A stretch of DNA of 64,000 nt from Tissierellia bacterium. Its GTDB lineage: Bacteria > Bacillota > Clostridia > Tissierellales > Tepidimicrobiaceae. The stretch's first letter is position 1; each line of letters begins with the position of its first letter. The position numbers and the translations under genes were made by a program. The stretch covers positions 10,784 to 74,783 of the forward strand of contig JAAYFE010000072.1 in the NCBI GenBank assembly GCA_012728365.1, in the 5' to 3' direction. This document shows positions 3,066 through 60,256 of this stretch, piece after piece. The notes under the pieces are model-generated. The model searched no databases and had not been told where the DNA came from. It worked only from the letters and a program-made list of their open reading frames with translations.

Positions 3066-3851
3066 TTGGACATATCAAGTATACTTGGACTTATTCTAGG
3101 TATTACATTTATGTTCTGGGGTATATATGAATCAGGAGATTTAAGTGCTTATTGGAATATAACATCAATTATAATTACCTTAGGAGGAACCATAGCTTCA
3201 ACTTTAACATCATTTCCAATGAAGGACATTGGAAATGTATTAAAAGTTGCTAAAAATGCTTTTGTACATACAGAAATTTCCCTTGATAAGGTAATAACAG
3301 ATATAATTACGCTAGCTAATTTAGCTAGAAAGGAAGGCTTATTATCTTTAGAGGAATATGCAGATAATTTAGGTGACGACTTTCTTATAAAAGGGATTAT
3401 GTTAATTGTTGACGGAACAGAACCGGAGCTGGTAAGGAATATTATGGAGACAGAACTACTTTACCTTGAAGAGAGACATGCAAAGGGTCAAAAATTATTT
3501 GAGACTGCAGCTAAATTTGCCCCAGCTTTTGGAATGATAGGTACCTTAATTGGCTTGATAAATATGCTAAGAACTGTGGATGATCCTAGCACCATTGGGC
3601 CAAATATGTCTGTAGCACTAGTGACTACTTTTTATGGAGTAGTTTTAGCCAATGTTATTTTTATGCCTTTAGCTAAAAAACTAAAGTCTAGAAATGATGA
3701 AGAAATATTGGCTAAAGAATTGATTGTTGAAGGACTTTTGTCAATCCAAGCAGGGGAAAATCCAAGAATTATAGAAGAAAAGTTAAAGACATTTATTCCT
3801 CCAAGTATGAGAAAAAACTATAGAGAGCAGGCTGAAAGAGAGGGAATATAA
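3066..3851 (+). CDS. motA: Flagellar stator protein MotA
   Basis: MotA/TolQ/ExbB channel motifs are present (AFGMIGTLIGLINML, ALVTTFYGVVLANVIFMPLA). The start is TTG, 6 nt after AGAGGTG. Confidence 0.9.
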   Translation: MDISSILGLILGITFMFWGIYESGDLSAYWNITSIIITLGGTIASTLTSFPMKDIGNVLKVAKNAFVHTEISLDKVITDIITLANLARKEGLLSLEEYADNLGDDFLIKGIMLIVDGTEPELVRNIMETELLYLEERHAKGQKLFETAAKFAPAFGMIGTLIGLINMLRTVDDPSTIGPNMSVALVTTFYGVVLANVIFMPLAKKLKSRNDEEILAKELIVEGLLSIQAGENPRIIEEKLKTFIPPSMRKNYREQAEREGI

Positions 3852-4558
3852 TGATGAGGCGCAGGAGAGCAGAAGAAGATACAGGAGACAATTGGTTAAC
3901 AACCTATAGTGATATGGTTACTTTGTTACTATGTTTTTTTGTATTGCTTTATACATTTTCAACTCTTGACGTTCAAAGATTTAAGAGTGTACTGGCAAGC
4001 TTTCAGGGAGGCTCAGGGATGTTAGATGGAAGTGATACAATAATACCCGAAGAACTTAATTTAATAAAAGCTGAAGATGATTTGACCTCATTGAAGGATA
4101 TATTAGAGAATTATGCAATGATTTCAAATTTAGAAGAAGAAATAACCATCTCTATAGAGGAAAGGGGATTAATTATCAGGTTTATGGATAGGGTGTTATT
4201 TGACCCAGGGAAAGCTGATATAAAGCCTGAAGCTTATGATATACTTGATTCTATTGCGGAAATATTAAACAGTGAAGAATTTGGGAATAGATTGATAAAA
4301 GTTGAGGGTCATGCAGATACAACTCCAGTAAATCCAGCAGATGGTTTTCCTACTAATTGGGAGTTATCAGCAATTAGGGCTACCAATGTGTTAAGATATT
4401 TAGTTGAAGAAAAAAATATAGATGGAAGCAGAATTTCTTCTTCTGGTTATAGTTTTTATAGGCCTATAGCTCCTAATGATACTAAGGAGAATAAAGCCAA
4501 AAATAGAAGGGTTGATATTGTAATATTAAATTCTATCCAAGAAAAGACTGAACCATAA
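3851..4558 (+). CDS. motB: Flagellar stator protein MotB (OmpA-like peptidoglycan-binding domain)
   Basis: The N-terminal TM segment with the conserved Asp is WLTTYSDMVTLLLCFFVLL. The C-terminal OmpA-like region is NWELSAIRATNVLRYL...NRRVDIVIL. The start overlaps the motA stop (TAATG). Confidence 0.9.
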   Translation: MMRRRRAEEDTGDNWLTTYSDMVTLLLCFFVLLYTFSTLDVQRFKSVLASFQGGSGMLDGSDTIIPEELNLIKAEDDLTSLKDILENYAMISNLEEEITISIEERGLIIRFMDRVLFDPGKADIKPEAYDILDSIAEILNSEEFGNRLIKVEGHADTTPVNPADGFPTNWELSAIRATNVLRYLVEEKNIDGSRISSSGYSFYRPIAPNDTKENKAKNRRVDIVILNSIQEKTEP

Positions 4559-4577
4559 TAAAGGTGGTGTTAATGTT

Positions 4578-4991
4578 ATGAAGACTAGAAATGTTATAAT
4601 TATTTTATTAATTTTAATTGCATTACTAACTTCAATAGGTATTTTCTTAGGGGTAAGCTTGTATAATAGCAATAAAACTACTGAGAAACCTATAGAAACT
4701 TTTGCATTAACTTTAGATGATATGTATTGCGACTTAAAAGATGGTAAGGGCATTGTGAAATTGAATGTGACTATTGAAACATATAGTAAAGAAACCTTAG
4801 AAGCATTAGAAAAGAGAGTGTACTTAATTAAAAATAATATAAATGAAATTGTTAGAAATAAAACTGAGGAAGAATTAAAAGGGAAAGACGGACAAGTTAA
4901 TCTTCAAAAAGAAATAAAAGATAATTTAGTCAAAGTATTTGAAGATGATAGAATTACAAATGTATATTTCAATCAGTTTGTGATTCAGTAG
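4578..4991 (+). CDS. fliL: Flagellar basal-body-associated protein FliL
   Basis: It is 137 aa with a single N-terminal TM helix and lies between motB and fliM. The C-terminal ...ITNVYFNQFVIQ is typical of FliL. Confidence 0.7.
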   Translation: MKTRNVIIILLILIALLTSIGIFLGVSLYNSNKTTEKPIETFALTLDDMYCDLKDGKGIVKLNVTIETYSKETLEALEKRVYLIKNNINEIVRNKTEEELKGKDGQVNLQKEIKDNLVKVFEDDRITNVYFNQFVIQ

Positions 4992-5008
4992 GAGAGGAGG
5001 TAGAGTGC

Positions 5009-6001
5009 TTGTCAGATATTTTATCCCAAAGTGAAATAGATGCCCTACTTCAAGCTCTTAGTTCTGGGGTACTTGATCTTCATGAAATGAAAGAAGTAGA
5101 AAGTATACATAAAGTTAAAAAATATGATTTTAGAAATCCACAAAAAATTGCTAAGGATCAACTAATGACTTTAGAAATAATAAATGAAAATTTCGGAAGG
5201 TTCTTCCAAAACTTTTTATCTGGTTATTTACGAGTACCAGTAAAGTCTACCATATTAAGCGTTGATCAATTTGCATACAGTGAATTTACTAATGCAATTT
5301 CTAATCCAGCTTTTTTAAGTATAATAGATTTTGAACCCTTAAAGGGCCAAATATTAATTGATATATCAACTAATATAGTTTTTACCATTATAGATAGATT
5401 ATTAGGTGGAGATGGTACTGAAACCCAAGAAACAAGAACCTTTACCGAAATAGAACTATCTTTAATGAATAGTATAATGAAAAAAGCAATGCCTTTGCTA
5501 AAGGATGCTTGGGACAATGTTATTGATCTTAAGCCAAAATTAGAAAAAATTGAAACAAATCCTCAGTTTGCTCAGATAATTCCTCACAATGAGACTATTG
5601 CTCTTATTACTATGAGTCTAGATATTGGACAAAGTGAAGGAATGATGAATATATGCATTCCTTATCTTGTTATAGAACCTATACTAGATAAATTAAGTGC
5701 TAAACACTGGTTTTCTACAACAAAGGAACAATTATCAGAAAAAGAATTAGTAGAAATTAGAAATAGAATACTAAACACAAAAGTAGAAATAACGGGGGAA
5801 TTGGGTAAAACAGTTGTAAAAGTTAGTGAGATACTAAACTTACAAAGAGGTGATGTCATAAGATTAGATAATAAAGTTAGTGAGAAGGCAAAAATAAGAA
5901 TTGGATCAAATTTAAAATTTTTAGGTGATATTGGTGTATCAAACAGAAAGATGGCTATTAAGATAACAAAGGTAGTAAAGGATGGTGAAAACTATGAATA
6001 A
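5009..6001 (+). CDS. fliM: Flagellar motor switch protein FliM
   Basis: The N-terminal CheY-P binding motif LSQSEIDALL is present, followed by a FliM middle domain and a C-terminal SpoA-like domain. The start is TTG after GGAGG. Confidence 0.9.
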   Translation: MSDILSQSEIDALLQALSSGVLDLHEMKEVESIHKVKKYDFRNPQKIAKDQLMTLEIINENFGRFFQNFLSGYLRVPVKSTILSVDQFAYSEFTNAISNPAFLSIIDFEPLKGQILIDISTNIVFTIIDRLLGGDGTETQETRTFTEIELSLMNSIMKKAMPLLKDAWDNVIDLKPKLEKIETNPQFAQIIPHNETIALITMSLDIGQSEGMMNICIPYLVIEPILDKLSAKHWFSTTKEQLSEKELVEIRNRILNTKVEITGELGKTVVKVSEILNLQRGDVIRLDNKVSEKAKIRIGSNLKFLGDIGVSNRKMAIKITKVVKDGENYE

Positions 6002-7151
6002 TGAAATGAATGATATGCTTTCACAGGAAGAAATAGATCTTCTACTAAAGGGAAGTAGTAATGAAGAATCTTTGTGCTATGAAGATCAATGTATTAATGA
6101 AATGGAAAAAGATACAATAGGGGAAATAGGAAATATTAGCATGGGTACTGCTGCAACAACCTTATCAGCATTGCTAAATAGAAAAGTTAATATTACTACA
6201 CCTAAGGTAGAAATTACTACTGCCAATAAGCTAGCTGATGAATATCCAATACCTTTTGTAGCAGTAGATGTTAAATATAAAAAAGGGCTAGAAGGTTCTA
6301 ATGTGTTAATTATTAAAGAAAATGATGTTAAGATAATAACAGATATAATGATGGGTAACGAAATTGATGTAAATAGAGAATTAACCGAACTAGATTTAAG
6401 TGCAATATCTGAAGTAATGAATCAAATGATGGGCTCAGCGACAACTTCTTTATCTGAAATGTTTGCAAAAAGGATTGTTATTGAGCCGCCTAAGTCATAT
6501 AATATTACTTTTAAGGAAGGGAAAGATAAATTAGAAGTATTGCAAACTGATGGACCTATAATAAGGGTGTCATTTAAAATATTTGTGGAAGACCTTATAG
6601 ATAGTAAGTTTATTCAACTGATACCAATTGATTTTGGGATACAAATGGTAGAAAGGCTGATGGAATCTTCTAATGTTACAGAAAGCACAAATAATAAATC
6701 TTCCGTAAAAAGTGAAAATATTCCAGTAGATATACAAAATGAAAAAATGATAAGTCAGCACATGATAGATAGCTACCCAAAGGATGATTTAAGAGAATCT
6801 CAAAGTAGTGCTACAAAAGAAGAACCTGTAGTTGTTAAGGAACCTGTATTTGAGAGTTTTGATAATGAGCCAAAATCTGGCCATACTGAACCTAAAGAAG
6901 CAGGGTCAATTGACTTGGTTGGCGATATACCTGTTGAGATAACAGTCGAGCTGGGAAGAACTGTGAAAAAAATAGGAGAAATACTGGAATATGGACTTGG
7001 AACTGTCATTGAATTGGACAAACTAGTTGGAGAACCATTGAATATATATGCCAATGGCAAATATATTGCAAAAGGCGAAGTGGTTGTTATTGATGATAAT
7101 TTTGGTGTTAGAATTACAGATTTAAATAGCAAATTAAACAAAAATAATTAA
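5982..7151 (+). CDS. fliY: Flagellar switch protein FliY (CheC-like phosphatase domain fused to a FliN C-terminal domain)
   Basis: LSQEEIDLLLKG is followed by CheC-type repeats (IGEIGNISMGTAATTLS, SEVMNQMMGSATTSLS). The C-terminal FliN/SpoA domain is VEITVELGRTVKKIGEIL...GEVVVIDDNFGVRITD. The start could also be ATG 5994. Confidence 0.85.
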   Translation: MVKTMNNEMNDMLSQEEIDLLLKGSSNEESLCYEDQCINEMEKDTIGEIGNISMGTAATTLSALLNRKVNITTPKVEITTANKLADEYPIPFVAVDVKYKKGLEGSNVLIIKENDVKIITDIMMGNEIDVNRELTELDLSAISEVMNQMMGSATTSLSEMFAKRIVIEPPKSYNITFKEGKDKLEVLQTDGPIIRVSFKIFVEDLIDSKFIQLIPIDFGIQMVERLMESSNVTESTNNKSSVKSENIPVDIQNEKMISQHMIDSYPKDDLRESQSSATKEEPVVVKEPVFESFDNEPKSGHTEPKEAGSIDLVGDIPVEITVELGRTVKKIGEILEYGLGTVIELDKLVGEPLNIYANGKYIAKGEVVVIDDNFGVRITDLNSKLNKNN

Positions 7152-7169
7152 AGAAGGAGATGACAGATT

Positions 7170-7532
7170 ATGGGAAAAGGGATATTAATAGTTGATGATG
7201 CTACCTTTATGAGAATGATGATAAAGGACATATTAGAAAAAAACGGATATGAGGTAATAGGAGAAGCAAATAATGGTATAACAGCTGTAGAAAAATATAA
7301 AGAATTATCACCAGAATTGGTCATTATGGATATAACAATGCCTGAAATGGACGGAATAGAAGCAGTAAGAAAAATTAAAGAAATTGATCCTAATGCTAAA
7401 ATTATTATGTGTTCTGCAATGGGGCAGCAAGCCATGGTTATAGAATCCATACAAGCTGGTGCCATAGACTTTATAGTTAAACCCTTCCAACATGATAGGG
7501 TAATTGAAGCTGTAAAGAAGGTTTTAGGTTAA
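7170..7532 (+). CDS. cheY: Chemotaxis response regulator CheY
   Basis: This is a single receiver domain of 120 aa (ILIVDDATFMR, VIMDITMPEMDG, IMCSAMG, FIVKPF). It lies after fliY, as in B. subtilis. Confidence 0.92.
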   Translation: MGKGILIVDDATFMRMMIKDILEKNGYEVIGEANNGITAVEKYKELSPELVIMDITMPEMDGIEAVRKIKEIDPNAKIIMCSAMGQQAMVIESIQAGAIDFIVKPFQHDRVIEAVKKVLG

Positions 7533-7533
7533 G

Positions 7534-8001
7534 ATGAAGGTTGCCAAAATTGCAATTTATATATTATTGATAATTTACTTTACAAATATAACTGTATATG
7601 CAGCTGGGCCAAATTATTCATTGGGAGGATATTTACTAAAACTAATTATTTATATGGCTTTAGTTTTGTTTGTTGTTGGACTAGCTATATTGGGCACTAA
7701 ACTTTTTGCTAAAGGCTCTCAAAAATTTATAAAAAGCAAGTATATGAAAATTGTTGATATATTAAGTGTTGGAACAAATGTAAAGCTATTGATGGTTGAG
7801 ATAGGTGATTATATATATGTAATTGTTATAACTAATAGTACTGCTGAATTAATAGAAAAAATAAAGAAAGATGAATTAATAAAAAATAAAGATTTCAATG
7901 ATGAACTAACTAAATATACTTTAAACTATATAAATATAGATAAGATAAAGAAGATATTAGGCAGAGATGATAAATTTGATAGTGAGGAAGACGGAAAATG
8001 A
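7534..8001 (+). CDS. fliO: Flagellar biosynthesis protein FliO/FliZ
   Basis: This small bitopic membrane protein lies immediately upstream of fliP. The call rests mostly on position. Confidence 0.55.
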
Positions 8002-9820: not shown

Positions 9821-10909
9821 ATGAAATACTTTATAAACTTACAATTATTTGCTGAAGCTGAAAAAACTGAAAAACCAACGCCTAAAAGACGAAGAGAAGC
9901 TAGAGAAGAAGGGCAAGTTGTTCAGAGTAAAGAGCTAACAACTGCATTTATATTATTAGCTGCTTTTTTTGGAATGAAGATATTTGGAGAATATTTAATA
10001 AAATACATGATAGAGTTAATAATTGAAATTTACTCTAATATAGAAAATATTGATATATTATTTAATGAAAATAATTTAATGGTTTATTTTCTAAAAGGAA
10101 TTAAAGCTTATGCAATAATAACTGGGTCTATGCTAGGTATTACTTTTTTAGCCAGTCTCGTAATAAGTTATTTACAAGTTGGATTCTTATTTACAACCAA
10201 ACCTTTAAAAATAAAGCTAAATAGAATAAATCCTGTAGAAGGGTTTAAAAGGCTTTTTTCTAAAAGAGCATTGCTGGAATTTTTAAAGTCAATTTTGAAA
10301 GTTATTTTAATTGGCTATGTAGCTTATTCATATGTAATTGACAATATTTATGGCATAATTAATTTAGTAAACTTTGAATCAATGTCAATATTTACTAATA
10401 TTTTTAATATTTCATATGGTTTTGCCATAAGAATTATTCTTGCAATAATGGTAATTGCTTTTATAGATTATTTTTTTCAATGGAGACAACATGAAAAAAG
10501 TCTTATGATGACCAAACAAGAATTGAAGGAAGAATATAAACAGACAGAAGGAGATCCACTTATAAAGTCTAAAATAAAGGAAAGGCAAAGAAAAATCGCC
10601 ATGTCTAGAATGATACAAGAAGTTCCTAAGGCTGATGTTATTATTACAAACCCAACCCATATTGCTGTAGCAATAAAATATGATAAGGATTTGTATGAAG
10701 CACCTTATGTAATTGCTAAAGGAAAGGATATAGTTGCAGAAAATATTAAAAAGGTTGCACAAGAAAATTCAGTTCCTATAGTTGAAAACAAATCTCTTGC
10801 AAGAGTATTATACGATACATTAGAAATAGGTGATTTAATACCAGAAGAATTATATGAGGCTATAGCAGAAATACTAGCTTATGTTTATAGTTTAAGATAT
10901 AACTACTAG
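9821..10909 (+). CDS. flhB: Flagellar export switch protein FlhB
   Basis: The N-terminal LQLFAEAEKTEKPTPKRRREAREEGQV is present, as is the autocleavage site NPTH (ITNPTHIAVAIKY). Confidence 0.93.
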   Translation: MKYFINLQLFAEAEKTEKPTPKRRREAREEGQVVQSKELTTAFILLAAFFGMKIFGEYLIKYMIELIIEIYSNIENIDILFNENNLMVYFLKGIKAYAIITGSMLGITFLASLVISYLQVGFLFTTKPLKIKLNRINPVEGFKRLFSKRALLEFLKSILKVILIGYVAYSYVIDNIYGIINLVNFESMSIFTNIFNISYGFAIRIILAIMVIAFIDYFFQWRQHEKSLMMTKQELKEEYKQTEGDPLIKSKIKERQRKIAMSRMIQEVPKADVIITNPTHIAVAIKYDKDLYEAPYVIAKGKDIVAENIKKVAQENSVPIVENKSLARVLYDTLEIGDLIPEELYEAIAEILAYVYSLRYNY

Positions 10910-53827: not shown

Positions 53828-53856
53828 TTGACTTAAAGCTATAAATATTATACAAT
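53828..53856 (+). promoter_or_regulatory. Sigma-A-type promoter of recA
   Basis: TTGACT (53828-53833) is followed by a 17-nt spacer and TACAAT (53851-53856). Confidence 0.6.
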
Positions 53857-53860
53857 TATA

Positions 53861-53878
53861 CTAGAACATTAGTTCTAG
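53861..53878 (+). promoter_or_regulatory. LexA (DinR) SOS box
   Basis: CTAGAACATTAGTTCTAG contains GAAC-N4-GTTC (53864-53875), the Gram-positive Cheo-box core. It lies 5 nt downstream of the -10 and upstream of recA. Confidence 0.7.
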
Positions 53879-53916
53879 AAATAAGAAAGGCGGTGAACCA
53901 GTTTTACTGGGACAAT

Positions 53917-54963
53917 ATGACACGTTTAGAAGATAAACAAAAAGCTTTAAGTGTAGCTATGGCACAAATTGAAAAACAGTTTGGAAAAGGCTCCATAATG
54001 AGGCTAGGAGATAAAGAGGCAGTTAAAATGGAAGTTATACCAACGGGAGCCCTAAGCTTAGATATTGCATTAGGAATCGGTGGCTTTCCTAAGGGGAGAA
54101 TAATTGAAATATTTGGTCCAGAATCATCTGGTAAAACAACAGTAGCATTACATGCTATTGCAGAAGCACAAAAAAAGGATGGAGTAGCAGCCTTTATAGA
54201 TGCTGAACATGCTCTTGATCCTAATTATGCTAAAAAGCTAGGTGTTGATGTAGATAATCTAATAGTATCACAACCTGATACTGGGGAGCAGGCTTTGGAG
54301 ATTACAGAAGCATTAGTAAGAAGCGGGGCAGTCGACATAGTAGTAGTGGACTCAGTTGCTGCCTTAGTACCCAAGGCAGAAATAGAAGGAGAAATGGGAG
54401 ACAGCCATGTTGGCCTACAAGCTCGTCTAATGTCTCAGGCTTTAAGAAAGTTAGCAGGAGTAATTAATAAATCTAAAACTATAGTCATATTTATTAACCA
54501 ATTGAGAGAAAAAGTAGGTGTAATGTTTGGTAATCCTGAAACTACTACTGGTGGTAGGGCCCTAAAATTTTATTCTACTATTCGATTGGATGTTAGAAGG
54601 GTTGACTCAATTAAACAAGGGGAAGATGTAATTGGAAATAGAACCAGAGTAAGGGTTGTTAAAAACAAGGTTGCTCCTCCTTTTAAGCAAGCAGAATTTG
54701 ATATAATGTACGGTCAAGGAATTTCTAATGAAGGTAATATATTAGATATTGGTGTTGAGTCAGATATAATAAATAAATCTGGTTCATGGTATAGTTATAA
54801 GGATTATAAACTTGGACAAGGCAGAGAAAATGCTAAAGATTTCTTACGACAAAATCCTGAAATTTTACTAGAGATAGAAAATTTAATTAGAGAAAAACAT
54901 GGCTTAGAAAAAATAGCTAGTGAAAAAGAAAGTAAAAAAGAAAAAAGCGCTGAAGCTGAATAA
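53917..54963 (+). CDS. recA: Recombinase RecA
   Basis: [25 protein letters not shown], the Walker [10 protein letters not shown] and [24 protein letters not shown] are present. ATG 53917 gives a typical N-terminus. The alternative GTG 53893 lies only 2 nt from its putative RBS. Confidence 0.97.
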
Positions 54964-54973
54964 GACTAATTTT

Positions 54974-55000
54974 ATAAACCTCCATATGGAGGTTTATTTT
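54974..55000 (+). terminator. Intrinsic terminator after recA (abuts the RBS of the next gene)
   Basis: A perfect 24-nt palindrome, ATAAACCTCCAT/ATGGAGGTTTAT (54974-54997), is followed by TTT. AAAGGAG begins at 55001. Confidence 0.75.
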
Positions 55001-55015
55001 AAAGGAGTGTTATTG

Positions 55016-56002
55016 TTGAGGATATTGTTTTTAACAGATACACATATTAGAGGTACTACACCTAAGAATCGAAAAGACAACCTACAGGAAACTTTAGAAA
55101 AAAAATTAATTGAAGTCGGTAAAATGATTAAAGATTATAATATTGACTATGTCCTTCATGGAGGAGATCTATTTGATAGACCTGATATTTCTATCTCAGT
55201 TGTAAGTAATTTTGCAACAATATTAAACAATTATAAGGTACCTATTTATATAGTTAGTGGTAATCATGATGTATATGGACATAATCCAGATACAGTTAGC
55301 AGAACTATCCTAGGCTTATTAGATGCATTAAATATTGTTAAACTAATTAAAGAAAATGAAATAATCTATTTAAACAAAAATGGCATTAAAGTTCAATTAA
55401 CTGGTCAACCTTATACTTATAATATTGATCATGAGGAAAATAAAAGTGGATATATCGTAGATAATATAGGCAAAGATATAGACTATTCAATACATATAGT
55501 CCATGGAATGTTGTTAGATAAGCCATTTATCAAGGGAGTACCCTATACATTAATTGATGAAATTCTTGCTACTAAAGCAGATATTACATTGGCAGGCCAT
55601 TATCATACAGGATTTGGTATTATAAATATCAACAATAAATATTTTGTTAATCCTGGTAGCTTAGTTAGAATTACAAATAGTTTAAAAGAAATTGAAAGGT
55701 ATCCTAAGGTTGCCATTATTGAGTTAGGAGTCAATATCAATATTAAACTAATAAATTTAAAAACTGCTGTAGAAGGAGAAAAAATTTTAGATAGAGAAGA
55801 AATAGAAAACCACATTTTTAAAAGCGAAAGGTTATATAATTTTAAACAATCAATTGATGAGGCAATTAATTTTGATAAATTAGAAATAAATGAAATACTT
55901 ATGGAGGTTTCCAATGCAGAAGGAGTTTCGGAGGAAGTAAAAGTTGAGGCACTTAAGAGAATTTCTAATGCTCAAATGAAAGGTATAGGAGATGAGTTGT
56001 AA
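55016..56002 (+). CDS. Mre11/SbcD-like calcineurin-fold metallophosphoesterase (putative DNA exo/endonuclease)
   Basis: All five phosphoesterase motifs occur in order: LTDTH, GGDLFD, GNHD, VHG and GHYH. The start is TTG at 55013 or 55016, 5-8 nt after AGGAG. The ORF-track start at 54920 lies inside recA. Confidence 0.8.
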   Translation: MRILFLTDTHIRGTTPKNRKDNLQETLEKKLIEVGKMIKDYNIDYVLHGGDLFDRPDISISVVSNFATILNNYKVPIYIVSGNHDVYGHNPDTVSRTILGLLDALNIVKLIKENEIIYLNKNGIKVQLTGQPYTYNIDHEENKSGYIVDNIGKDIDYSIHIVHGMLLDKPFIKGVPYTLIDEILATKADITLAGHYHTGFGIININNKYFVNPGSLVRITNSLKEIERYPKVAIIELGVNINIKLINLKTAVEGEKILDREEIENHIFKSERLYNFKQSIDEAINFDKLEINEILMEVSNAEGVSEEVKVEALKRISNAQMKGIGDEL

Positions 56003-57448
56003 ATGATATATATCAAGAAAGTTATATTAGAAAATTTTCAATCCCATAAATATACTGAAATAGAATTTGATAAATATTTAAATGTCATAGTTGGGCCTTC
56101 GGATCATGGGAAAACTGCAATAATAAGAGGAATTAAATGGGCACTTTTTAATGAACCTTCAGGTGATTATTTTATAAGAGAGGGAGAAACAGAGTGTAGT
56201 GTAACTATTTTTTTTAGTAACAATACTAAAATAAAAAGATATAGAAGTAAAAGTAAAAATTACTACTATATTTGTGATAATGAAGGGAATGAAACTGTAT
56301 TAGAAGGTTTTGGGACAAAGTTACCGGAAGAAGTTATTGAGAAAACATCTATTAAGAAGATATTATTGGATAGTAATGTTTCAAATGCTATAAATATAGG
56401 AGAACAGTTAGAAGGTCCTTTTTTATTATCTGAAACTACTTCTACTAGAGCAAATGCTATAGGAAGATTGGTGGGTGTTCATATTATAGACGATGCTTTA
56501 AGAGATACCTTAAGGGATATAAATAAGCTTAGAGGGAAAAAAAGAATTTATGAAGAAACCTTAGAAAAATTAAATGAAGAACTTAAAGAATATGATTATT
56601 TAGATAAATTACAATTAGTATCAAAAAAACTAACTGTAATCAAAGAAAAAATTAGAGAGAAGCAAAATAAGTTAGACAATCTTTCCAGAAGGCAAGAAGA
56701 GTTAAACAAAATTAATAAAGACATACTTTTATACAAAAAATTTCTGTCTAAGTTAGAAGAATTAGATAGAATTTCAGAAATTGAAAAGGAATTAGGTGTA
56801 AAAATTAAAAGTTTTTCATATATAGCTAATAGATATGAAAGAATAAATGAGATAAAAAAATCTATAGAAAAGGATAAGCTGATATTAAGGTCTTTAATGA
56901 ATATTGAAAAAATTGAAAAATCTTATAAAATAATATCTAACAAAGAAAAGAGATTATTAAAATTAATAGAGTTATATTCTACTAACAATTATATTAAAGA
57001 AAAGGTACTGGAAAACAAGTATATCTTGTATAAGTTAAAAGATATAAGTGTTATTGAAAAAAATATAGTTATAATTGAAGAAAACTGTAAAAAGTTAAAT
57101 AGTGTCGTTGCATTAAAAAACAAAATAGACAAAGTTAATAAAAGTTTATCTATAGGAAAGGTATATATTGAAAAACTATCTATCATAGAGCCACTATTTA
57201 ATCTAAAGAATTCTATAGAAGAAAAATATAAACTTTTGGAAAACTTACTAACTATTAAAACTAAATACGAACACATAAATAATGCCTATACAGATACTCA
57301 TAAGAAATTAACAAAAATTCAAAACAACATAAAAAACTTGTTGAGACAGTATGAGGACATATTAAATAATCTAGAGGTATGTCCAGTATGTTACAGTTCA
57401 ATAGATAAAAATAGTATTAAAAATATAATTAATAGTTTAAATAGCTAG
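56003..57448 (+). CDS. Rad50/SbcC-like ATPase, N-terminal piece (Walker A head lobe, long coiled coil and C-terminal CPVC zinc-hook motif)
   Basis: IKKVILENFQSHKYTEIEF...VIVGPSDHGKTAIIRGIKWAL is an SMC/Rad50 N-terminus with a P-loop. About 290 aa of heptad-rich sequence follows, and CPVC lies at nt 57380-57391, 18 aa from the end. The ATG directly follows the upstream TAA. Confidence 0.75.
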   Translation: MIYIKKVILENFQSHKYTEIEFDKYLNVIVGPSDHGKTAIIRGIKWALFNEPSGDYFIREGETECSVTIFFSNNTKIKRYRSKSKNYYYICDNEGNETVLEGFGTKLPEEVIEKTSIKKILLDSNVSNAINIGEQLEGPFLLSETTSTRANAIGRLVGVHIIDDALRDTLRDINKLRGKKRIYEETLEKLNEELKEYDYLDKLQLVSKKLTVIKEKIREKQNKLDNLSRRQEELNKINKDILLYKKFLSKLEELDRISEIEKELGVKIKSFSYIANRYERINEIKKSIEKDKLILRSLMNIEKIEKSYKIISNKEKRLLKLIELYSTNNYIKEKVLENKYILYKLKDISVIEKNIVIIEENCKKLNSVVALKNKIDKVNKSLSIGKVYIEKLSIIEPLFNLKNSIEEKYKLLENLLTIKTKYEHINNAYTDTHKKLTKIQNNIKNLLRQYEDILNNLEVCPVCYSSIDKNSIKNIINSLNS

Positions 57449-57461
57449 GGGGGTTGTCAGG

Positions 57462-57713
57462 TTGAAGAACTATGAAAAGGAATTAAACTTATTAAAAGAA
57501 AATCTAGATAAAGCTAAAAGTTTAAAATATAAGGCAGAAGCAAGATTAGAGCAGTTAAACAATCAACAACAGGAGATAATTAGGGAGTTAAAGGAATTAG
57601 GAGTTAATCCCGAGGATCTAGATAAAGAAATAAAGAAATTAACTGAGGAGATAGACTCGCTGTTTAAAGAAGCAAATGAATTAATGCCAAAAGATATATT
57701 AGAAAAGATGTGA
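57462..57713 (+). CDS. 83-aa coiled-coil protein (middle piece of the split Rad50/SbcC-like ATPase?)
   Basis: The start is TTG, 9 nt after a GGGGGG RBS. The whole sequence is heptad-like (LKENLDKAKSLKYKAEARLEQLNNQQQEIIRELKELG...). It lies in a different frame from both neighbours. Confidence 0.6.
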   Translation: MKNYEKELNLLKENLDKAKSLKYKAEARLEQLNNQQQEIIRELKELGVNPEDLDKEIKKLTEEIDSLFKEANELMPKDILEKM

Positions 57714-57717
57714 TAAT

Positions 57718-58374
57718 ATGATAAATAGCTATGAAGATCTAAATAAATATTTATCCCAAATAAATGCTTTTATTTCAAAGGAAGAAGGCAAAAGGGAAAA
57801 AATTCAAGAACAAATAGACAATACTAAAAAAGCCCTTGATAATATACAGGATGAAATAGATCTGTTAGAAAAAGTAAATATACTTTTTCAAAAAACATCT
57901 GAATTTGCTAGAAATCAAGCTAAATTCCAAATAGAATCTCTTGTAACTAATTGCTTACAGTACGTATTTGAAAATGATATTGAATTTAAAATAGAAATAG
58001 AAGAGTTACGAAATAAGCCAAGTGCTGATTTTTATGTAATAACGAAAGAAAATGGGACAACTATAAAAACTAAACCAGAGCTTTCTAGAGGAGGAGGAGT
58101 TGTAGATATTATATCCTTAGCCTTACGTATTGCTTTTTTACAAATCCATAAGCCTAAAATTCAAGGACCTTTAATACTAGATGAGCCAGCTAAACATGTC
58201 AGTGAAGATTATATATTTAATGTAGCAGATTTTTTGAAGAAAACCTCTGAAATGTTTGAAAGGCAAATTATTATTGTTACCCATAACAACCATTTATCTG
58301 CTATTGGAACAAATGCTTATAGGGTTACATTAAAAGGTACAATTAGCGAAGTTAGCAAAGTTCTTATTGATTAA
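57718..58374 (+). CDS. Rad50/SbcC-like ATPase, C-terminal piece (coiled coil, ABC signature, Walker B, H-loop)
   Basis: An N-terminal coiled coil of about 75 aa is followed by ELSRGGGVVDIISLALRIA (signature-like), PLILDEPAKHV (Walker B and D-loop) and IIIVTHNN (H-loop). Confidence 0.75.
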   Translation: MINSYEDLNKYLSQINAFISKEEGKREKIQEQIDNTKKALDNIQDEIDLLEKVNILFQKTSEFARNQAKFQIESLVTNCLQYVFENDIEFKIEIEELRNKPSADFYVITKENGTTIKTKPELSRGGGVVDIISLALRIAFLQIHKPKIQGPLILDEPAKHVSEDYIFNVADFLKKTSEMFERQIIIVTHNNHLSAIGTNAYRVTLKGTISEVSKVLID

Positions 58375-58379
58375 GAGAC

Positions 58380-58408
58380 TTGACATATTATTGTAAAAGT
58401 AATAAAAT
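58380..58408 (+). promoter_or_regulatory. Sigma-A-type promoter upstream of rny
   Basis: TTGACA (58380-58385) is followed by a 17-nt spacer and TAAAAT (58403-58408). It lies about 150 nt upstream of the rny RBS. Confidence 0.6.
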
Positions 58409-58557: not shown

Positions 58558-60099
58558 ATTGATACTATAATTGATATCATAATTTATCTATTAATGGCTT
58601 TGACAGGAATCGTAGCAGGTTTTCTTATGAGGAAAAACATTGCAGAAAAAAAGATAGGAAATGCTGAAGAACTAGCTAAAAAAATAATTGAAGATGCGAA
58701 CAAAGAAGCTGAAACCCGCAAAAAAGAATTATTGTTAGAAGCCAAAGAGGAATGTCATAGAATTAGAGTTGAAGCAGATAGAGAAAATAGAGAAAGAAGG
58801 CTTGAAATTCAAAGGCAAGAAAAACGCTTGCTACAAAAAGAGGAATCCTTAGATAGAAAGGCTGATGCTCTAGAACATAGAGAGGAAGCTTTTAATAAAA
58901 GATTGAAAGAATTAGAAGAAAAAGAAGTTCTTATAAATGAATTATATGAAAAGCAAGTTAAAGAATTAGAAAGGCTTTCTGGCTTAACTTCTGACGAAGC
59001 AAGAGAAATATTATTGAATGATATTAGAAAAGAAATAGCACATGAATCTGCGCTATTAATAAAAGAAGCAGAAAATAGAGTTAAGGAAGAGGCAGAAAAG
59101 AAAGCCAAGGAGATTATATCTTGTGCAATTCAAAAATGTGCTGCTGATCATGTAGCTGAAACTACAGTAACTGTAGTTTCCTTGCCAAATGATGAAATGA
59201 AGGGTAGAATTATAGGTAGAGAAGGTAGAAATATTAGGACCTTAGAAACATTAACTGGTATTGATTTGATTATAGATGATACACCTGAAGCTGTAGTTTT
59301 ATCAGGTTTCGATCCAATTAGGAGAGAAATTGCAAGAATAGCTCTTGAAAAGCTAATAGTTGATGGAAGAATTCATCCAGCAAGAATAGAAGAGATGGTA
59401 GAAAAAGCTAAAAAAGAAGTAGAAAAAACAATTATAGAAGAAGGAGAACAAGCTGAATTCGAAGTTGGAATTCATGGCCTTCATAGTGAATTAATAAAGT
59501 TATTAGGTAGATTAAAATATAGATCAAGTTATGGACAAAATGTTCTTAGACATTCTATAGAAGTAGCTCATCTGGCAGGAGTAATGGCTGCTGAATTAGG
59601 AGCAGATGTAAAAATTGCCAAAAGAGCAGGTTTGTTACATGATATAGGTAAAGCTGTTGACCATGAAATAGCAGGTCCTCATGTGGATATAGGAGTTGAA
59701 TTAGCTAGGAAATACAAAGAATCTGAAGAAGTCATACATTGTATTGCAGCACATCATGGTGACATTGAACCCAGAACTGTAGAAGCTGTGTTAGTGCAAG
59801 CAGCAGATGCTATATCTGCAGCTAGGCCAGGTGCGAGAAGAGAAACATTAGAAGCATATATTAAGAGATTAGAAAAACTAGAAGAAATAGCAGAATCATT
59901 TGAAGGTATAGAAAAATCTTTTGCTATGCAAGCGGGTAGGGAATTAAGAATAATGGTTAAACCTGAGAAACTAAATGATAATGATATTGTTCTTGTAGCT
60001 AGGGATATAGTTAAAAAGATTGAAAGTGAATTAGATTATCCAGGACAAATAAAAGTAAATGTAATTAGAGAAACAAGGGCAGTGGAATATGCTAAATAG
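58558..60099 (+). CDS. rny: Ribonuclease Y (membrane-anchored, KH plus HD domains)
   Basis: Almost the whole length aligns with B. subtilis RNase Y ([40 protein letters not shown] motif GLLHDIGKA, ...[10 protein letters not shown]). The first ATG (58594) would remove half of the N-terminal TM helix. The frame is open upstream, and ATT 58558 lies 8 nt after AGGAGG, so the start assignment is tentative. Confidence 0.85.
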
Positions 60100-60164
60100 G
60101 TATTAAACCATTAGGAAAGAAAACAAAATAATTTAATATAAATTTAATAATTTTTTTTAAAAAA

Positions 60165-60191
60165 GAAGGATTTTAAAAAAAATTGTAGAAT
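60165..60191 (+). promoter_or_regulatory. Sigma-H-like promoter upstream of spoVS
   Basis: GAAGGATTT (60165-60173) is followed by an 11-nt spacer and GTAGAAT (60185-60191). This matches the B. subtilis sigma-H consensus RNAGGAWWW-N11-12-RNNGAAT. Confidence 0.55.
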
Positions 60192-60256
60192 AAATAATTA
60201 TATATATAAATTATATAATAATTTAATAAAATAAAAAATGTAGAGGGGGATATATG

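Follow-up and report, generated by a model that had tools for sequence, protein, structure and literature searches.

Genes and features at the locus

We studied a window of 64,000 nucleotides from a Tissierellia bacterium (positions 10,784 to 74,783 of contig JAAYFE010000072.1, assembly GCA_012728365.1), in which a cassette of four genes, referred to here as open reading frames (ORFs) 1 to 4, lies between recA and rny. The first gene encodes a nuclease of the Mre11/SbcD type and the other three encode what, in order, resemble the parts of a single Rad50/SbcC-type ATPase. An earlier annotation of the window, made from the sequence alone and referred to below as the original prediction, had pointed to this cassette as unusual. 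The four genes are as follows:

55013-56002, + strand: ORF1, Mre11/SbcD-type metallophosphoesterase nuclease of 329 residues; candidate starts are a TTG at 55013 or a start at 55016
56003-57448, + strand: ORF2, 481 residues; head N-lobe of the Rad50/SbcC type (residues 1-160), then a helical arm, a putative zinc-hook motif and a short C-terminal helix
57462-57713, + strand: ORF3, TTG start; helix-loop-helix protein of 83 residues
57718-58374, + strand: ORF4, 218 residues; one long helix (residues 5-84), then a Rad50/SMC head C-lobe

Re-examination of the sequence confirmed the coordinates and spacings given in the original prediction, and every motif quoted there was found in ORF1, ORF2 and ORF4. 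The stop-to-start gaps across the cassette are 0, 13 and 4 nucleotides, with the stop codon of ORF1 abutting the start codon of ORF2, and ORF2, ORF3 and ORF4 are each in a different reading frame.

ORF1 is an Mre11/SbcD-like nuclease

The motifs LTDTH, GGDLFD, GNHD, VHG and GHYH of ORF1 represent all five of the Mre11 metal-binding motifs (DxH, GD, GNHD, H and GHxH) of the calcineurin-fold phosphoesterases. The Pfam Metallophos model matched ORF1 at 3e-14, and residues D9, H11, D52, N84, H85, H164, H196 and H198 were invariant among 14 diverse homologues, one of which was from a phage. When a profile built from the 14 homologues was searched against the PDB, the top 10 matches were all Mre11 or SbcD, the first being the P. 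furiosus entry 1II7 (5e-7). In the same search, T. maritima Mre11 aligned to residues 1-219 of ORF1 and Vps29 to residues 146-246 only. Together, the Pfam match, the invariant metal motifs and the PDB ranking supported the earlier assignment of ORF1 as an Mre11/SbcD-like protein.

The helical C-terminal tail of ORF1 was conserved among the homologues and is a candidate Rad50-binding region. In a scan of relatives, which was restricted to one genome per species and returned 80 loci, ORF1 and ORF2 were adjacent in all 76 loci that had both genes complete, and the two are fused in some phages.

ORF2 and ORF4 are the two halves of a Rad50-type head

The ATPase motifs are divided between ORF2 and ORF4:

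56093-56116, + strand: Walker A, GPSDHGKT, ORF2 residues 31-38; invariant in the family
57380-57391, + strand: CPVC, zinc-hook-type CPxC motif, ORF2 residues 460-463; 18 residues follow
58084-58098, + strand: signature motif SRGGG, ORF4 C-lobe
58171-58188, + strand: Walker B, LILDEP, ORF4 C-lobe
58282-58284, + strand: H-loop His189 (VTHN), ORF4 C-lobe

The N-lobe of ORF2 also carries the sequence NFQSH and an invariant Q-loop glutamine (Q135). ORF2 aligned to positions 2-456 of an archaeal Rad50 model of 878 positions, and ORF4 to positions 649-869 of a Rad50 model of 872 positions. The best PDB sequence matches of ORF2 were N-terminal head fragments of Rad50 (3QKR_A, 8e-10), and in its AlphaFold2 model, which had a mean predicted local distance difference test score of 79.7, the head had the Rad50 N half as its top Foldseek matches. 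The AlphaFold2 model of ORF4 consisted of one 80-residue helix followed by an ATP-binding cassette (ABC) C-lobe, and its best structural matches were C-terminal head fragments of SMC and Rad50 proteins (5H66_B, 1F2U_D and 1II8_B). The proposal that ORF2 and ORF4 are the two halves of an ABC/Rad50 head was thus borne out by both the profile and the Foldseek searches.

The Walker A, Q-loop, SRGGG, Walker B and H-loop motifs were all invariant in alignments of 118 sequences. The CPxC motif of ORF2 was likewise invariant across 118 homologues, and the phage homologues have it too. ORF2 had originally been described as ending in CPVC, which is not the case, as the protein continues for the 18 residues noted above. 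The family of stand-alone C-lobes to which ORF4 belongs is large, with at least 150 clusters (50% identity) at E < 1e-33.

The three ATPase genes are separate in related genomes and under purifying selection

Among the 80 related loci, ORF2 and ORF3 were separate genes in 74 of the 74 that could be compared, and ORF3 and ORF4 in 70 of 70. The original prediction had named an uninterrupted sbcC-like gene in close relatives as the sign of a frameshifted pseudogene, and no such gene was found at these loci. The ATPase is encoded by three ORFs here and at the loci of 70 to 74 related genomes, among which the sole fusion was one of ORF3 to ORF4 (locus L080, described below). The geometry of the junctions ranged from overlaps to gaps of 19 nucleotides, with nine different combinations of relative reading frames across the genomes; based on these varied junctions and frames, there is no conserved frameshift site.

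All four genes are under strong purifying selection. The ratios of nonsynonymous to synonymous substitution rates (dN/dS) against the closest relative (L001) were 0.087 for ORF1, 0.149 for ORF2, 0.022 for ORF3 and 0.075 for ORF4. Database searches with ORF2, ORF3 and ORF4 returned almost exclusively proteins of about 480, 82-83 and 218 residues, respectively. An exhaustive profile search with ORF4 identified 2,125 clusters (50% identity) at E < 1e-10, of which the best 150 were nearly all 205-260 residues long, and no single-chain relative appeared among the approximately 2,000 homologous clusters from this search.

In one metagenome-assembled genome (L015, positions 7444-7558), just the last ~30 codons of ORF3 were present, and a second locus (L076, positions 7170-7530) had ORF1, an ORF2 of 389 residues and ORF3, no ORF4, and differing flanks; either could represent a real loss or an assembly problem. 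In another lineage (L085, positions 4321-6360), a recA-recX-[...]-rny-ymdB-spoVS locus holds an ORF1 homologue and one protein of 325 residues, in which the N-lobe is joined directly to the C-lobe without arm, hook or ORF3. The first ~26 residues of this N-lobe are apparently missing, and the protein may be decaying.

Tandem repeats of 47 residues make up the ORF2 arm

The region between the N-lobe and the putative hook of ORF2 has an internal repeat:

56492-57340, + strand: arm of ORF2 (residues 164-446), with about six 47-residue repeats in tandem

Autocorrelation of the arm profile peaked at an offset of 47 residues (z = 2.9) and again at 94 (z = 2.6) and 141, and when residues 164-446 were set in rows of 47, a single hydrophobic pattern was seen in six occurrences. 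The arm had originally been predicted to comprise about 290 residues of heptad-rich sequence; the length stood, and the plain heptads gave way to these repeats. The 47-residue period was also present in the arms of the phage homologues and was not found in E. coli SbcC, which served as a control. The natural lengths of ORF2 (481, 435, 389 and 306 residues) differ in steps of about one, two and four repeats, while the lengths of ORF3 and ORF4 remain constant as the arm varies by 47-residue units.

In the AlphaFold2 model the helix of the arm is broken at residues 196/197, 299/300 and 394, with the latter two breaks two repeats apart. The hydrophobic period was 3.36 for ORF2 residues 198-393, compared with about 3.5 in ORF3, in the ORF4 helix and in ORF2 segments 161-195 and 395-456. 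The helical residues available in ORF3 (~70) and ORF4 (80) amount to ~150, enough to cover about half of the 290-residue ORF2 arm. Based on this length mismatch, the breaks in the model and the hydrophobic periods, we suggest that the arm may be a canonical two-chain coiled coil with an inserted segment of four repeats. The insert (residues ~198-393) could either be a self-folding helical hairpin, as in the monomer model, or be bound by several copies of ORF3. Covariation analysis of 177 ORF2 sequences (effective number of sequences 123) by mutual information with average product correction gave no clear anti-diagonal signal for a hairpin centered at residues 299/300 and favored neither arrangement.

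ORF3 is conserved to the same degree as the ATPase head

The mean pairwise identity of ORF3 was 0.66, compared with 0.68-0.69 for the ATPase head and 0.23-0.24 for the ORF2 arm. ORF3 was the most conserved piece of the cassette, with the lowest dN/dS of the four genes, and many of its conserved positions are polar or charged. The original prediction had treated ORF3 as an 83-residue coiled-coil peptide; its length and helical nature were upheld. Given this conservation, ORF3 is probably more than a passive coiled-coil strand.

The only fusion among the related loci provided a view of how ORF3 may relate to its neighbors. In L080, from a member of the Symbiobacteriaceae, residues 3-58 of a 289-residue protein matched the ORF3 profile (E = 4.5e-10) and the remainder corresponded to ORF4, so that in this lineage at least ORF3 and the ORF4 helix belong to one continuous chain. 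The match needed the family profile, as BLASTP of the fusion protein against ORF3 was not significant. ORF2 of this locus has just 306 residues, and the ascending and descending helices there are of similar length.

Two candidate relationships of ORF3 were rejected, those of a copy of the ORF2 repeat (hhalign probability 1.8%) and of a homologue of XseB (scores of 3-4 bits). The similarity between ORF3 and the N-terminal helix of ORF4 was weak (hhalign E = 8e-4, probability 24%). Two ORF3 homologues of 87 residues (P0424 and P0430) have a precomputed Pfam match to PF27863.1.

A possible alternative, to which we give some weight while thinking it less than even, is that ORF3 is a separate, conserved accessory subunit, either an adaptor to the hook, ORF1, DNA or RecA, or a clamp present in multiple copies on the arm. 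This would be in keeping with the difference in conservation between ORF3 and the arm, the dN/dS of 0.022 and the conserved polar and charged positions, with the fixed lengths of ORF3 and ORF4 while the arm steps by 47 residues, and with the unrelated genes by which ORF2, ORF3 and ORF4 may be separated in certain lineages and phages (see below). There is also a structural precedent in exonuclease VII (ExoVII; XseA4-XseB24), in which the 80-residue hairpin of XseB binds in multiple copies to degenerate hydrophobic repeats on a helix of XseA, whose length varies in quantized steps (PMC10835039). However, the L080 fusion with its short-armed ORF2 fits a simple descending strand, the 3.5 period of ORF3 equals that of the ORF4 helix and of the heptad-like parts of ORF2, and ORF3 has no detectable homology to XseB. 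ExoVII, a DNA-end nuclease with a long helical stalk and no ATPase, is a functional analogy only.

Rather more speculatively, and with less than even likelihood, the cassette may represent a new architectural class of SMC/Rad50-like machine in which the arm is modular and non-covalent and multiple copies of ORF3 lie on the 47-residue repeats, much as XseB does on XseA. As the chain stops straight after the putative zinc hook, the apex could open as a gate through which DNA enters or exits. The proposal is drawn from the head-level conservation of ORF3, the stepwise arm, its half coverage by ORF3 and ORF4, and the 3.36-residue period of the ORF2 repeats, which would suit a helix with partners on two faces. 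If it is correct, the number of repeats would set the length of the arm.

Gene order and putative regulation

The genes and signals that flank the cassette are:

53862-53877, + strand: LexA (Cheo)-type palindrome TAGAACATTAGTTCTA, 16 bp, downstream of the promoter-like site of recA (53828-53856) and upstream of its start
53893-54963, + strand: recA, directly upstream of the cassette
54973-55000, + strand: terminator-like hairpin, 10-bp stem AUAAACCUCC/GGAGGUUUAU then UUUU; z = -4.35; in the 50-nucleotide gap between recA and ORF1
58380-58408, + strand: strong promoter-like site TTGACA-17-TAAAAT, right after the ORF4 stop and ahead of rny; the downstream end of the cassette
58594-60099: rny, downstream of the cassette

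The order of genes around the cassette is ftsK-rimO-pgsA-cinA-recA-[ORF1-4]-rny-spoVS. The pattern GAAC-N4-GTTC had a single site in the 64-kb window, where 0.22 would be expected by chance. No promoter-like site was found in the 50-nucleotide gap between recA and ORF1. Read-through from recA, which would make the expression of ORF1-4 SOS-linked, is the simplest reading of this arrangement, and the hairpin in the gap may, as a leaky terminator, determine how strongly ORF1-4 are expressed relative to recA.

A ymdB gene is absent between rny and spoVS in the window (60099-60254). The order in B. subtilis is rny-ymdB-spoVS, which is also that of locus L085.

The cassette is part of the core genome of relatives and has kin in phages and plasmids

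The split arrangement beside recA, for which the original prediction had proposed a survey of gene neighborhoods, recurred widely in relatives. In 71 of the 72 loci in which the upstream side could be evaluated the cassette was preceded by recA (sometimes recA-recX), and it was followed by rny in 61 of 65. Carriers included Tissierellia, Peptoniphilaceae, Fonticella, Thermohalobacter, Dethiothermospora and others, as well as some other Bacillota. For recA and rny the median identity to the window was 78%, compared with 71% for ORF3, 67% for ORF4, 63% for ORF1 and 43% for ORF2. The fixed position between recA and rny, and a divergence that tracks that of these two genes, look like those of a vertically inherited core operon with a housekeeping function and not of a mobile island or a variable defense island.

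Homologues of the cassette were also found in phages and plasmids, with the ORF1-4 profiles matching proteins of phBC6A51, vB_BboS-125 and 0305phi8-36 at E values from 1e-14 to 1e-93. In the Bacillus prophage phBC6A51 these proteins are BC1852, BC1854 (the ORF3 homologue), BC1855 and BC1857; in phage vB_BboS-125 they are gp32, gp34 (the ORF3 homologue) and gp35; and in phage 0305phi8-36 they are gp8 (a fusion of ORF1 and ORF2), gp7 (the ORF3 homologue) and gp5 (the ORF4 homologue). All four components were also present on a phage-like metagenomic contig and on the C. baratii plasmid pCBJ. The PHROGs database contained full-length matches with the gene order kept, namely phrog_16465 for ORF2 (4e-63), phrog_18563 for ORF3 (5e-9) and phrog_15167 for ORF4 (3e-62). 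Database annotations of the phage homologues were exonuclease, hypothetical protein and ATPase, and no account of the split was found among them.

The phage and plasmid homologues are true members of the family, as they have the three-piece ATPase, the CxxC motif and the 47-residue periodicity. They differ from the bacterial cassettes in not being beside recA, in having extra genes at the junctions, and in the placement of ORF1, which is either downstream or fused to ORF2 (769-796 residues). Their modules usually lie among replication and recombination genes, such as those for primase, helicase and Holliday junction resolvase. As these modules are the nearest kin outside the clade, ancestral exchange of the cassette with phages seems likely.

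In vB_BboS-125 the gene exactly at the junction of ORF2 and ORF3 (gp33; L083, positions 4128-4700) has weak HNH_3 and AP2 matches and is homing-endonuclease-like, and unrelated genes were present at the junctions between ORF2, ORF3 and ORF4 in other phages and in one bacterial lineage. Based on these junction genes, it is plausible that the gene was split by mobile insertions of the homing-endonuclease type in a phage ancestor. In the bacterial lineage (L086, positions 4354-4824), a gene for a 156-residue protein lies between ORF2 and ORF3 in a locus that otherwise keeps the order recA-ORF1-ORF2-ORF3-ORF4-rny. We considered this gene as an extra piece of the arm and rejected it, as it encodes a multi-pass membrane protein.

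A divergent arrangement was seen on a 300-kb "plasmid" of C. difficile BI1 (L091, positions 3781-7485), where the phosphohydrolase gene is on the opposite strand and the C-lobe gene comes first, with an ORF4-like protein of 222 residues (28% identity) preceding an ATP-binding protein of 606 residues. A gene for a DncV-like cyclase is nearby.

Of the two roles offered in the original prediction, a repair machine or a defense module, the findings on distribution favored the repair-type reading, which we kept. A defense role would make the cassette an anti-phage or anti-plasmid SMC/Rad50-like system, comparable to Lamassu, Wadjet or PARIS, that senses foreign DNA ends which ORF1 then cuts. Pairs of an SMC-like ATPase and a nuclease are common in defense, homologues of the cassette occur on phages and large plasmids, and PADLOC gave weak matches of ORF2 and ORF4 to the heads of LmuB, mad3, GajA, PtuA and AriA. 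However, these matches span the generic ABC head only, and no LmuA, JetD, TOPRIM-type effector or other partner was found. The best of the PADLOC matches to ORF2, LmuB of Lamassu (4e-15), covered its N-terminal 199 residues, again the head only. Lamassu has the effector LmuA as well as LmuC, whereas no effector or LmuC model matched any of ORF1-4, whose neighbors are recA and rny, and ORF1-4 also differ from Lamassu in having an Mre11-type nuclease with an intact active site and a fixed position in the core genome. That single position in 71 of 72 loci, the divergence in step with recA and rny, and the placement of the phage modules among replication and recombination genes likewise do not suit a defense module, and we consider such a role improbable.

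A further reading, in which the three ORFs are fragments of one dead sbcC-like gene, broken by a frameshift or other decay, or a product of faulty assembly, might be suspected from three pieces in three frames, from the very short gaps (13 and 4 nucleotides) and from the derivation of the window from a metagenome-assembled genome, but it can be dismissed with near certainty, as the three ORFs are separate in 70 to 74 independent genomes, isolates included, with differing junctions and frames, every piece has a dN/dS of 0.02-0.15, the catalytic motifs are invariant, cultured phages show the identical split, and the roughly 2,000 clusters held no single-chain relative.

Discussion

We consider it likely that ORF1-4 encode a functional machine of the Mre11-Rad50/SbcCD type for the processing of DNA ends and hairpins, with an ATPase that in nature consists of three separate chains. 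In such a machine, the ORF2 N-lobe and the ORF4 C-lobe would reconstitute one ABC nucleotide-binding head. The N-terminal 80-residue helix of ORF4, extended by ORF3, would pair in antiparallel fashion with ORF2 residues ~161-195 and 395-456, and the lineage-variable repeats between them (~198-393) would either form a hairpin of helices by folding back or be occupied by further ORF3 copies. The CPxC motif at the end of the ORF2 arm would join two complexes through zinc, and a dimer of ORF1 would dock on the heads via its C-terminal helices and supply the nuclease. The chain breaks would lie just past the hook and inside the descending strand, in which case the apex of the arm would be closed non-covalently. 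The cassette may be transcribed by read-through of a leaky recA terminator under LexA control and would then form part of the recombinational repair toolkit.

Several points weigh against this proposal. We infer the physical assembly of the complex, its stoichiometry, substrates, regulation and origin, and the AlphaFold2 models are of single chains only. Scores against the curated families were low throughout: the TIGR00619 sbcD model scored ORF1 at 36.3 bits against a cut-off of 77.65, with the equivalog models all far under threshold, and against the Rad50/SbcC family models ORF2 reached at best 55.9 bits, with a cut-off of 700, and ORF4 45.3 bits, with a cut-off of 1000. The Pfam Rad50_zn_hook match on ORF2 was also below threshold (E = 0.048, 13.9 bits, cut-off 24.3). 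As no curated SbcC, SbcD or Rad50 cut-off was reached, ORF1-4 are a divergent relative and not an orthologue of a curated family. With respect to the arm, ORF3 and ORF4 would cover only about half of it, and the greater conservation of ORF3 than of the arm with which it should pair is left unexplained if ORF3 is a passive partner strand. The proposed link to the SOS response depends on a single box ahead of recA and on read-through that we assume, and transcription of ORF1-4 could instead start from a weaker promoter-like site within recA (54743-54770).

A defining property of Rad50, SbcC and SMC proteins is that a single chain doubles back by way of a long coiled coil, and how the arm and hook transmit ATP-driven changes, and how DNA enters and exits, are debated. 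SbcCD and Mre11-Rad50 share with ORF1-4 a calcineurin-fold nuclease beside an ABC ATPase, and ORF2-4 have, in identical order, the N-lobe (Walker A, Q-loop), arm, CxxC motif and C-lobe (signature, Walker B, H-loop) of these ATPases. They differ in that the known ATPases are one chain whereas ORF2-4 are three, with 47-residue repeats and an SRGGG signature. The arm of ORF2-4 is also much shorter than that of E. coli SbcC, which has 1048 residues.

When the N and C halves of the Rad50 head are produced as separate polypeptides, they come together again as an active head. Such engineered split heads (PDB 1F2T, 1II8 and 3QKR; chains A and B) were the top matches for ORF2 and ORF4, respectively, by both sequence and structure. 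These are laboratory constructs without arm or hook, whereas the split of ORF2-4 is natural and conserved, and the arm and a putative hook are retained.

The original prediction recognized no described system with this three-piece architecture, and our literature search likewise found none; it returned no description of a split Rad50/SbcC, nor of a recA-linked sbcCD-like operon in Clostridia. As far as we can tell, neither the conserved three-piece build nor the arm of 47-residue repeats nor the hyper-conserved small subunit has been described before. The family had been glimpsed in part, as Yoshida, Claverie and Ogata (2011) listed 0305phi8-36 gp8 (A7KV18) as an Mre11/Rad50 fusion and, for both the phage and the Anaerostipes proteins, reported that one P-loop NTPase segment "was not observed" (PMC3175470). 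The segment missing from gp8 is the separate downstream gp5, with gp7 sitting between the two, and this accounts for the "missing" ATPase segment of the fusion.

If ORF1-4 are the machine proposed here, the family would provide a natural test of covalent continuity through the hook, of the control of arm length and of gating at the apex. It would also assign a role to three protein families that are now labelled "AAA family ATPase", "hypothetical protein" and "ATPase" in Bacillus phages as well as in Tissierellia and Peptoniphilaceae, among them human-associated genera.

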